Part shown: one piece after another, positions 21,421 through 23,465 of the stretch | How the letters are laid out: each line of letters begins with the position of its first letter | Position numbering within the stretch: the first letter of the stretch is position 1 | IMG/VR virus record: IMGVR_UViG_2531839529_000006 | Length of the DNA: 23,465 nucleotides | Source of the DNA: a virus | Lineage: Duplodnaviria; Heunggongvirae; Uroviricota; Caudoviricetes | Direction: 5' to 3' (one strand) | Made by a program: the position numbers and the translations under genes | The notes under the pieces: generated by a model | Database searches by the model: none | The model's input: only the letters and a program-made list of their open reading frames with translations | Told to the model about the DNA's origin: nothing

Positions 21421-21966
21421 ATGGAAGTCAACAAAAAGCAGCTGGCTGACATTTTCGGTGCGAGTATCCGTACCATTCAGAACTGGCAGGAACAGGGAAT
21501 GCCCGTTCTGCGAGGCGGTGGCAAGGGTAATGAGGTGCTTTATGACTCTGCCGCCGTCATAAAATGGTATGCCGAAAGGGATGCTGAAATTGAGAACGAA
21601 AAGCTGCGCCGGGAGGTTGAAGAACTGCGGCAGGCCAGCGAGGCAGATCTCCAGCCAGGAACTATTGAGTACGAACGCCATCGACTTACGCGTGCGCAGG
21701 CCGACGCACAGGAACTGAAGAATGCCAGAGACTCCGCTGAAGTGGTGGAAACCGCATTCTGTACTTTCGTGTTGTCGCGGATCGCAGGTGAAATTGCCAG
21801 TATTCTCGACGGGCTCCCCCTGTCGGTGCAGCGGCGTTTTCCGGAACTGGAAAACCGACATGTTGATTTCCTGAAACGGGATATCATCAAAGCCATGAAC
21901 AAAGCAGCCGCGCTGGATGAACTGATACCGGGGTTGCTGAGTGAATATATCGAACAGTCAGGTTAA
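21421..21966 (+). CDS. nu1: Terminase small subunit Nu1
   Basis: 181-aa protein MEVNKKQLADIFGASIRTIQNWQEQGMPVLRGGGKGNEVLYDSAAVIKWYAERDAEIENEKLRREV... matches lambda Nu1 as recalled. Confidence 0.95.
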   Translation: MEVNKKQLADIFGASIRTIQNWQEQGMPVLRGGGKGNEVLYDSAAVIKWYAERDAEIENEKLRREVEELRQASEADLQPGTIEYERHRLTRAQADAQELKNARDSAEVVETAFCTFVLSRIAGEIASILDGLPLSVQRRFPELENRHVDFLKRDIIKAMNKAAALDELIPGLLSEYIEQSG

Positions 21967-23068
21967 CAGGCTGCGGCATTTTGTCCGCGCCGGGCTTCGC
22001 TCACTGTTCAGGCCGGAGCCACAGACCGCCGTTGAATGGGCGGATGCTAATTACTATCTCCCGAAAGAATCCGCATACCAGGAAGGGCGCTGGGAAACAC
22101 TGCCCTTTCAGCGGGCCATCATGAATGCGATGGGCAGCGACTACATCCGTGAGGTGAATGTGGTGAAGTCTGCCCGTGTCGGTTATTCCAAAATGCTGCT
22201 GGGTGTTTATGCCTACTTTATAGAGCATAAGCAGCGCAACACCCTTATCTGGTTGCCGACGGATGGTGATGCCGAGAACTTTATGAAAACCCACGTTGAG
22301 CCGACTATTCGTGATATTCCGTCGCTGCTGGCGCTGGCCCCGTGGTATGGCAAAAAGCACCGGGATAACACGCTCACCATGAAGCGTTTCACTAATGGGC
22401 GTGGCTTCTGGTGCCTGGGCGGTAAAGCGGCAAAAACTACCGTGAAAAGTCGGTGGATGTGGCGGGTTATGATGAACTTGCTGCTTTTGATGATGATATT
22501 GAACAGGAAGGCTCTCCGACGTTCCTGGGTGACAAGCGTATTGAAGGCTCGGTCTGGCCAAAGTCCATCCGTGGCTCCACGCCAAAAGTGAGAGGCACCT
22601 GTCAGATTGAGCGTGCAGCCAGTGAATCCCCGCATTTTATGCGTTTTCATGTTGCCTGCCCGCACTGCGGGGAGGAGCAGTATCTTAAATTTGGCGACAA
22701 AGAGACGCCGTTTGGCCTCAAATGGACGCCGGATGACCCCTCCAGCGTGTTTTATCTCTGCGAGCATAATGCCTGCGTCATCCGCCAGCAGGAGCTGGAC
22801 TTTACTGATGCCCGTTATATCTGCGAAAAGACCGGGATCTGGACCCGTGATGGCATTCTCTGGTTTTCGTCATCCGGTGAAGAGATTGAGCCACCTGACA
22901 GTGTGACCTTTCACATCTGGACAGCGTACAGCCCGTTCACCACCTGGGTGCAGATTGTCAAAGACTGGATGAAAACGAAAGGGGATACGGGAAAACGTAA
23001 AACCTTCGTAAACACCACGCTCGGTGAGACGTGGGAGGCGAAAATTGGCGAACGTCCGGATGCTGAAG
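21941..23068 (+). pseudogene. A: Terminase large subunit A, disrupted by a 1-nt frameshift and truncated by IS insertion
   Basis: N-terminal A sequence (MNISNSQVNRLRHFVRAGLRS...GRGFWCLGGKAAK) is in one frame and the continuation (VDVAGYDELAAFDDDIEQEG...TLGETWEAKIGERPDAE) in another. The switch is at an A5 run (22432..22436) where lambda has A6 as recalled. Homology to A stops at 23068, where an IS66-type end begins. Confidence 0.85.
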
Positions 23069-23465
23069 GTAAGCGACTCGTCAGAACCGTATTGATATTT
23101 ACTGAGAGCTCAGATCAACTCTCCAGGGCAACAGATCGCGTACCCGGTTTGCCGGCCAATCCTGGATATGTTCAATGACGTAACGCAGCCACTTTTCTGG
23201 CTCCACATTGTTCAGACGGCATGTGCCGATCAGCGAGTACAACACCGCCGCATGTTCACCACCGCTGTCGGAACCCGCGAACATCCAGTTTTTCCGGCCT
23301 ACGGCCACTCCCCGTAAGGCGTTCTCTGCGATGTTGTTGTCGATTTCCACCCAGCCATTACTGCAGTACACGTTCAGTGCATCCCACTGTTTCAGCAGGT
23401 ATGCGAACGCTTTTGCCGTATCTGAGTGACGCGACAGTGTTTTCATCTGTTGCTGTATCCAGTCA
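23069..23465 (-). mobile_element. IS66-family insertion sequence, partial (runs off the window)
   Basis: Terminus begins GTAAGCG at 23069, exactly where homology to lambda A breaks. The minus strand encodes an IS66 TnpC-like C-terminus. Confidence 0.75.
23099..23465 (-). CDS. IS66-family transposase (TnpC-like), C-terminal fragment; 5' part beyond window
   Basis: Translation ...[72 protein letters not shown] resembles the conserved C-terminus of IS66-family transposases. The frame stays open to the window end. Confidence 0.7.

Follow-up and report, generated by a model that had tools for sequence, protein, structure and literature searches.

Terminase genes at the right end of the window

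The 23,465-bp stretch of DNA analysed here (the window; IMG/VR record IMGVR_UViG_2531839529_000006) ends in a phage lambda-type packaging segment in which the terminase large-subunit gene A is changed at two places, by a 1-nucleotide (nt) frameshift and by the terminus of an insertion sequence (IS) of the IS66 family. The segment opens with the lambda left end (21232..21420, plus strand), which holds the cosN nick at 21231/21232, followed by the cosB region and then the nu1 leader; near-identity to lambda starts here, the sequence aligning with lambda nt 1..190 apart from T38A and 138delG. The terminase small-subunit gene nu1 (21421..21966, plus strand) is intact, encoding 181 amino acids (aa) that fill the Pfam Phage_Nu1 profile (1-164 of 164, E=2.5e-100), with one synonymous difference from lambda (C542T). 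Gene A starts at 21941, directly after cos and nu1 and with the nu1/A overlap and the cosN site of lambda. As now read, its 5' part (21941..22591, plus strand) encodes 216 aa, consisting of residues 1-165 of the A protein (gpA) and 51 out-of-frame residues before a stop, and matches positions 3-134 of 247 in the Pfam GpA_ATPase profile. The frame is lost at an A5 homopolymer (22432..22436, plus strand), which is 1 nt shorter than its lambda counterpart, an A6 run (nt 1202-1207). Downstream, a fragment in the native frame (22437..23068, plus strand) encodes gpA residues 166-376, matches GpA_ATPase at 134-237 of 247 and GpA_nuclease at 2-59 of 294, and is lambda-identical except for the synonymous T1436C. 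In the open reading frame (ORF) listing, this native-frame continuation has its first start codon, a GTG, at 22453 and runs to 23178.

Base-by-base alignment placed window 21232..23068 on nt 1..1839 of lambda (NC_001416) with five differences: T38A, 138delG, the synonymous changes C542T in nu1 and T1436C in A, and A6 to A5. The G at 138 is likewise absent from many lambda records. In a megablast search of window 21300..23465 against phage records, bases 1-1769 were 99.6-99.9% identical to lambda and its laboratory derivatives and the match ended at 23068, while DNA identity to lambda A over nt 711-1839 was 99.8%. The frame change at A5 in place of the lambda A6, claimed in a preliminary description made from the sequence alone, was thus borne out by direct reading and by the alignment to lambda A which that description had proposed as a check. 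The A6 run is present in the genome ET881, in the enterotoxigenic Escherichia coli (ETEC) strain 120899 and at a further locus, L120, described below.

When one A was restored in silico, the product was 100% identical to lambda gpA residues 1-376 and continued for 36 residues read from the IS. The unrepaired product is native through Lys165, leaves the frame at residue 166 and reaches a stop at codon 217; the frame is lost before Walker B (VAGYDE, residues 174-179), so VAGYDE is out of frame. An uninterrupted ATPase domain with both Walker A and Walker B is therefore lacking, the GpA_ATPase match being split across two frames at 134/247. A complete nuclease domain and the prohead-binding end are lacking as well, as GpA_nuclease extends only over 2-59/294 before the IS and the contig does not encode residues 377-641. 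The wild-type peptide would be restored by a −1 ribosomal slip on GCA AAA A, a possibility that was considered and is moot given the IS.

An ISCro1-like terminus joined to gene A

Homology to A stops at 23068 and GTAAGCGACTCGTCAG begins at 23069, the junction reading GCTGAAG followed by GTAAGCGAC; the junction-spanning stretch expected in reads is GCTGAAGGTAAGCGAC. A complete 2,699-nt ISCro1 copy from ETEC strain 120899 (locus L003, IS at 8347..11045, assigned to the RefSeq ISCro1 family and carrying tnpA, tnpB and tnpC) starts with exactly GTAAGCGACTCGTCAG and is flanked by the 8-bp duplication CGATGAAC; this copy interrupts A after lambda nt 2016, 177 bp downstream of the site in the window. 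Because a complete, duplication-flanked copy starts identically, the right end of the IS has its outermost base at position 23069. The window holds the first 397 nt of that right end (23069..23465, minus strand), with the terminal repeat running from 23069, and these depart from the complete 2,699-nt copy at two IS positions only, 53 and 91. The terminal inverted repeat starting GTAAGCG agrees from 23069 onward with the termini of duplication-bounded complete copies, which elsewhere comprise tnpA-tnpB-tnpC and a second terminal repeat, and 8-bp duplications were verified at 32 other sites. The last 8 bp of A before the junction, TGCTGAAG (23061..23068, plus strand), would be the target duplication if the element arrived by simple transposition.

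The IS66-type DDE transposase TnpC is represented by its C-terminal part (23099..23465, minus strand, stop codon 23099..23101), which runs off the contig end as a 121-aa gene call and leaves the N-terminal 400 aa beyond it. These C-terminal 115-121 aa match Pfam DDE_Tnp_IS66 at 222-283 of 284 (E=4.5e-20) and DDE_Tnp_IS66_C at 1-39 of 39 (E=5.8e-17), and the minus-strand ORF 23099..23446 of the ORF listing matches the same two profiles. Both the IS66-type terminus at the end of A homology and the minus-strand transposase C-terminus had been noted in the preliminary description, and each holds, the former by its agreement with the end of the complete ISCro1 copy and the latter by the profile matches. 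The exact matches at the frameshift, the junction and the transposase are not the work of chance.

The IS stub has C at 23121 (IS position 53) and A at 23159 (IS position 91), where 77/85 other copies have T and G and 0/85 have both variants; the two fall in the first 91 nt, and none occurs in the following 306 nt. A 241-aa ORF that spans the junction of this allele is not on record and a 179-aa gene call occurs in this contig alone. A 36-nt junction pattern gave 0 matches in species-representative genomes and JGI metagenomes, and a shorter pattern was found in 1 viral contig, of the ET881 type described below, and in 0 metagenome contigs.

The source contig

The window is the entire contig AQFF01000009.1 of assembly GCA_000355175.1, from E. 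coli 2720900, and the 216-aa frameshift product has been deposited as EMX95342.1. Strain 2720900 is an ST173, CFA/I ETEC isolate from Bangladesh, whose 100-bp Illumina HiSeq 2000 reads (SRR446713) were put together by the Celera Assembler (PMC5469772). The contig terminates 397 nt inside the IS because a short-read assembler is unable to traverse a repeated element. In other strains, too, draft contigs that carry an IS at this junction break off 127-468 nt into it, and contig ends of this kind are therefore routine; a contig that ends in an IS carries no information on what follows. The variants at IS positions 53 and 91 probably explain why the contig reaches some way into the element.

Over its first 15,061 nt the contig is 99.2% identical to a complete genome with zero indels, and gene lengths are as expected. 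Among 110 homopolymer runs of at least 5 bases that were checked, one differs in length and is intergenic: the run at window 18057, upstream of the holin gene, is T6 in place of the T7 of the closest complete relative. This T6 could be natural variation or a consensus error.

IS66-family elements at lambda nt 1839/1840 in three A haplotypes

Three different native A haplotypes, namely those of the window, of the ET881 type and of L120, have an IS66-family element at A nt 1839/1840, and its orientation is the same in each (window 23061..23069; L002 8162..8170; L110 3909..3917 and 6081..6088; L120 3282..3290 and 5991..5998). Eight complete genomes have an A fragment and an IS66 element in this arrangement. 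Six are ETEC genomes with a separate insertion after nt 2016, flanked by CGATGAAC; two, ET881 and SW071610, share the junction nucleotide of the window and have there an 818-nt IS stub joined to a tail-fibre-assembly gene adjoining ybhB-bioA, which makes them remnants at att-lambda. A protein search added a further relative (P0003 and metagenome contig L011), with the same junction and a 74-nt IS stub joined to host DNA. The ET881-type 412-aa read-through fusion was present on 30 contigs and indexed in 50 blocks of the collection searched. At the ET881-type junction, contig L119 has a complete IS, and contig L110 has an IS with TGCTGAGG at both ends after which A resumes, followed by a later deletion to the tail-fibre-assembly gene. 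These two structures indicate that the ET881 family started as a canonical transposition and has been decaying since. In L120 (the Logan assembly of ERR3328450), a complete IS has TGCTGAAG on both sides, and beyond it come gpA 378-641, W, portal, protease, D and E.

The window and the ET881 haplotype differ at 36/1,837 positions; the last 200 nt hold 8 of these differences, and one lies only 2 nt before the junction. The G of the ET881 type at this −2 position is native to an uninterrupted A allele (L103). The L120 haplotype, which has A6, shows 39 differences from the window and 24 from the ET881 type, and all three haplotypes match natural intact alleles within 25 bp of the junction. The L120 element is a distinct IS66-family variant of 2,701 nt with 269 differences from the ISCro1 copy and with other terminal repeats, its left end being 96-98% identical to other IS66-like copies on plasmids.

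Known features of the target did not account for this recurrence. About 70 distinct ISCro1-type sites, sampled without bias from viral contigs, showed a weak preference for T at duplication position 4 and for A/T at position 6. The 32 verified targets carry about 1-2 bits of information, and a weight matrix built from them puts the site 455th among 3,810 in A and gives it 0.04% as its expected share, so that a generic ISCro1 target preference does not predict insertion at nt 1839/1840. A CCGGA motif upstream of the duplication proved to be a selection bias, the loci having been ranked by similarity to the window flank, and was absent at the approximately 70 unbiased sites. A pseudo-terminal-repeat at lambda 1875-1895, 36-56 nt downstream, was rejected as a targeting signal because its score is reached in 2.8% of background windows and at 5/32 targets where about 3.4 were expected. 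Local hairpin propensity and G+C content were unremarkable at the site, and the literature searched held nothing relevant on IS66 target choice.

Weighing the alternatives

We consider the frameshift to be probably real. Several observations count against it. The A5 call comes from a single Illumina/Celera consensus. Among 3,342 complete E. coli genomes matching 111 bp around the A-run, the exact A5 occurred in one, in which nearly all phage genes are annotated as frameshifted; two Logan contigs with the identical 216-aa product carry further homopolymer deletions within about 1 kb; and 216-aa relatives in DEC10A, in 5.0588 and in three contigs described as 'complete' are surrounded by other split genes. 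The A-run is thus a demonstrated site of sequencing error on other platforms, and the search for A5 as a natural allele elsewhere, which covered complete genomes, the exact product and its cluster, placed every other case in an error-laden assembly, none confirming A5 independently. All of this would suit a consensus error in a strain that truly has A6 and in which the IS is then the single lesion of A. Nevertheless, the window rests on Illumina 100-bp reads, Illumina makes few errors at runs of 5-6 bases, and at most 1 length discrepancy was seen in 110 runs on the same contig. No assembly on record reports A6 together with this allele and junction, and about 15 billion proteins searched did not include the repaired 412-aa fusion (the A6 version of the window allele with its junction). 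Moreover, once an IS has cut a gene, slips of this kind can build up freely. A consensus error at the run is on these grounds unlikely, though not strikingly so. The earlier caution that the frameshift might be a sequencing error is accordingly well founded as regards the other A5 cases, but fits poorly with an indel-clean Illumina contig; as a lesson for annotation, a lone homopolymer frameshift in a draft genome is not to be accepted at face value. For the junction, the preliminary description had held that it cannot be an artefact, which is nearly right. Reads of an intact lambda-type A might have been merged with reads of an ET881-type remnant into a chimeric consensus, given that the two A alleles are about 98% identical and could be collapsed by an overlap assembler, and that the remnant is widespread, as its 50 index blocks attest. 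However, all reads from the remnant junction would have G at −2, whereas the contig has the lambda-type A there and is lambda-type also at −32, −38 and −59, and its IS-stub alleles differ from those of the remnant. An unreal junction of this kind is highly improbable.

What lies past the contig end, and how the junction came to be where it is, were judged against the same relatives. A simple insertion is somewhat more likely in this strain than a deletion remnant, in which a deletion or rearrangement bordered by the IS would have its edge at the junction; the IS copy would then be incomplete or lead into unrelated DNA, and the prophage would have lost the remainder of A along with the head and tail genes. 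Such remnants do exist at this very nucleotide, with stubs of 818, 818 and 74 nt joined to the tail-fibre-assembly gene or to host DNA in ET881, SW071610 and L011, and in-frame fusions of the gpA N-terminus to late-gene domains are very common in public assemblies. Nor did the far side come to light: the far IS end and the 3' part of A were not found, far-side junction searches in viral contigs and complete genomes were empty, and the predicted far-side products (IS read-through, TGCTGAAG and gpA 377-641) are not on record. These points tell against a simple insertion; a 264-aa product from Met378 is common but arises via many unrelated upstream lesions. On the other side, the ET881-type remnants belong to a different A haplotype and a different event, the ancestral state of their family was a canonical insertion (L110, L119), in L120 a full IS gives way to A 378-641 and intact head genes, and the 397 visible nt give no sign of truncation. 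We therefore regard a deletion remnant as a possibility of some substance but favour the simple insertion. That three haplotypes share one nucleotide and one orientation might alternatively reflect a single old insertion in the ET881 family, which the window would have inherited before a lambda-type allele replaced its whole A flank, right up to where heterology begins. The weak target preference, with its 0.04% share for this site, makes coincidence very unlikely a priori and speaks for such descent; independent insertion at one nucleotide is indeed hard to credit on that preference. Yet descent with ordinary homologous exchange, which requires tens of bp of homology past the last converted marker, is likewise hard to credit, as it would need conversion tracts ending within 1-20 bp of heterology, several times and on both sides. 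It has to accommodate the 8 differences from the ET881 family in the last 200 nt including the one at −2, the native occurrence of the ET881-type G in L103, the two stub variants found together in none of 85 other copies, and a third haplotype, L120, which carries a different IS66 variant at the site and, within 10-25 bp to either side, differs from the ET881 type. Inheritance from one old insertion is for these reasons rather unlikely. The same-site recurrence is unexplained, and we lean towards a real hot spot; that nt 1839/1840 of lambda-type A is a nucleotide-precise, orientation-specific target of IS66-family elements, hit by at least three independent insertions, is a proposition on which the balance is about even. 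If true, it would imply an unrecognised form of target choice in the IS66 family, or a homing-like self-copying into the same site of the homologous gene, neither of which is revealed by the general insertion pattern. If upheld, the recurrence would be a small, concrete lead on target choice in a poorly understood family.

Consequences for packaging

Taken together, these results are very probably explained by a lambda-type A gene with a 1-nt frameshift and an ISCro1-like IS after codon 376, in a mosaic lambdoid prophage. The right terminal repeat of the element is joined to A immediately after codon 376 (lambda nt 1839), where it parts the ATPase portion from nearly all of the nuclease domain and the prohead-binding C-terminus. 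The A missing from the A6 run is predicted to take translation off the native frame after residue 165 and to a stop at codon 217, ahead of Walker B. Either lesion alone should abolish cos cutting and DNA translocation, as judged from the established roles of the gpA domains; the preliminary description had claimed as much for packaging, and these roles and the Pfam domain content support it. Self-packaging would then be impossible unless a co-resident lambda-type terminase supplied the function. In full, the locus most likely comprises a complete IS between two copies of TGCTGAAG, with the rest of A beyond it, the far side presumably reading GGTTAC, TGCTGAAG and TGATGGCAGAGCGG in succession.

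That the prophage is packaging-defective is well supported at the sequence level, where a gene essential for particles is disrupted twice and its function presumably lost. The preliminary description had called it 'likely cryptic and domesticated'. As for decay of the other morphogenesis genes, relatives go both ways, L120 keeping intact head genes and ET881 being a remnant. The packaging defect stands, but domestication has no support: the window A allele is known from one genome, the repaired fragment has no amino-acid change relative to lambda, and the IteAS cargo does not show it. The absence of amino-acid change fits recent inactivation as well as anything else. The prophage carrying IteAS very probably cannot package itself and would spread only by recombination or with a helper phage sharing the lambda cos and terminase specificity, a defect that matters for judging the mobility of the cargo.

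Disruption of A is in itself ordinary, already-known prophage decay. Damage to prophage late genes by IS, frameshift, nonsense mutation or deletion is commonplace, and loss of lambda-type A by many routes is common. Further IS66-family insertions were seen just 5' of the nu1 start codon (IMG/VR locus L082, duplication GAATGAAC) and inside nu1 (L030, GTTTCAGG), and the nonsense alleles W365* and E366* of lambda-type A occur at loci L121 and L127. Public E. coli assemblies also contain a great many proteins (among them P0049-P0110) in which an N-terminal piece of gpA is fused in frame to a tail-fibre, portal, capsid or tape-measure domain.

The remainder of the prophage

Apart from cos-nu1-A, the prophage is a non-lambda, Rac/Stx-phage-like mosaic that carries IteAS. 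The mosaic joint lies at cos (window 20891..21420): before the cosN nick at 21231/21232 the sequence is 74-96% identical to lambda, and from the nick to 23068 it is 98-100% identical. Window 1..21026 belongs to a separate lambdoid lineage, whose relatives carry an HNH/HK97-type packaging module instead. The cargo, at window 6945..10338, is the IteA/IteS anti-phage pair (an AAA ATPase and an S8 peptidase), both members of which exceed the NCBIfam equivalog cut-offs. Three tRNA genes, Met-CAT, Arg-TCG and Arg-TCT, lie at window 14958..15207 between a DNA methyltransferase gene and an iraM-like gene; in this region the window diverges from its closest complete relative, the annotation of which lists tRNA-Ile and tRNA-Arg here.

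Comparison with known systems

The nearest likeness is to nu1 and A of phage lambda itself (NC_001416 nt 191-2636), with cos, nu1 and A nt 1-1839 at 99.7-99.8% DNA identity. By contrast with lambda, A in the window loses its frame at residue 166 and goes no further than 376, leaving 265 C-terminal residues outside the window. The element resembles ISCro1 (RefSeq 'IS66-like element ISCro1 family') in its terminus GTAAGCGACTCGTCAG, in 397 nt with 2 differences and in the C-terminus of TnpC; against the complete ISCro1 (2,699 nt, tnpA-tnpB-tnpC, 8-bp duplications), the window displays the right-hand 397 nt only. The ET881-type remnant at att-lambda (nohD, the A fragment and IS66, through to ybhB-bioA) has the same A nucleotide, IS end and orientation as the window, but differs in its A haplotype (36 single-nucleotide differences, one at −2), intact A6, consensus IS alleles, other prophage backbone and known chromosomal site, and its IS is complete, internally deleted or a stub depending on the copy. 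L120, with the same nucleotide, the same orientation and the TGCTGAAG duplication, serves as the model of a simple insertion. Finally, the nohD-aaaD-tfaD region of the E. coli K-12 cryptic prophage DLP12, which we take to combine a lambda-type small-subunit gene with a 5' large-subunit fragment in a prophage that makes no particles, resembles the window. In DLP12, by contrast, the fragment presumably runs straight into a tail-fibre-assembly pseudogene, with no IS66 element in between.

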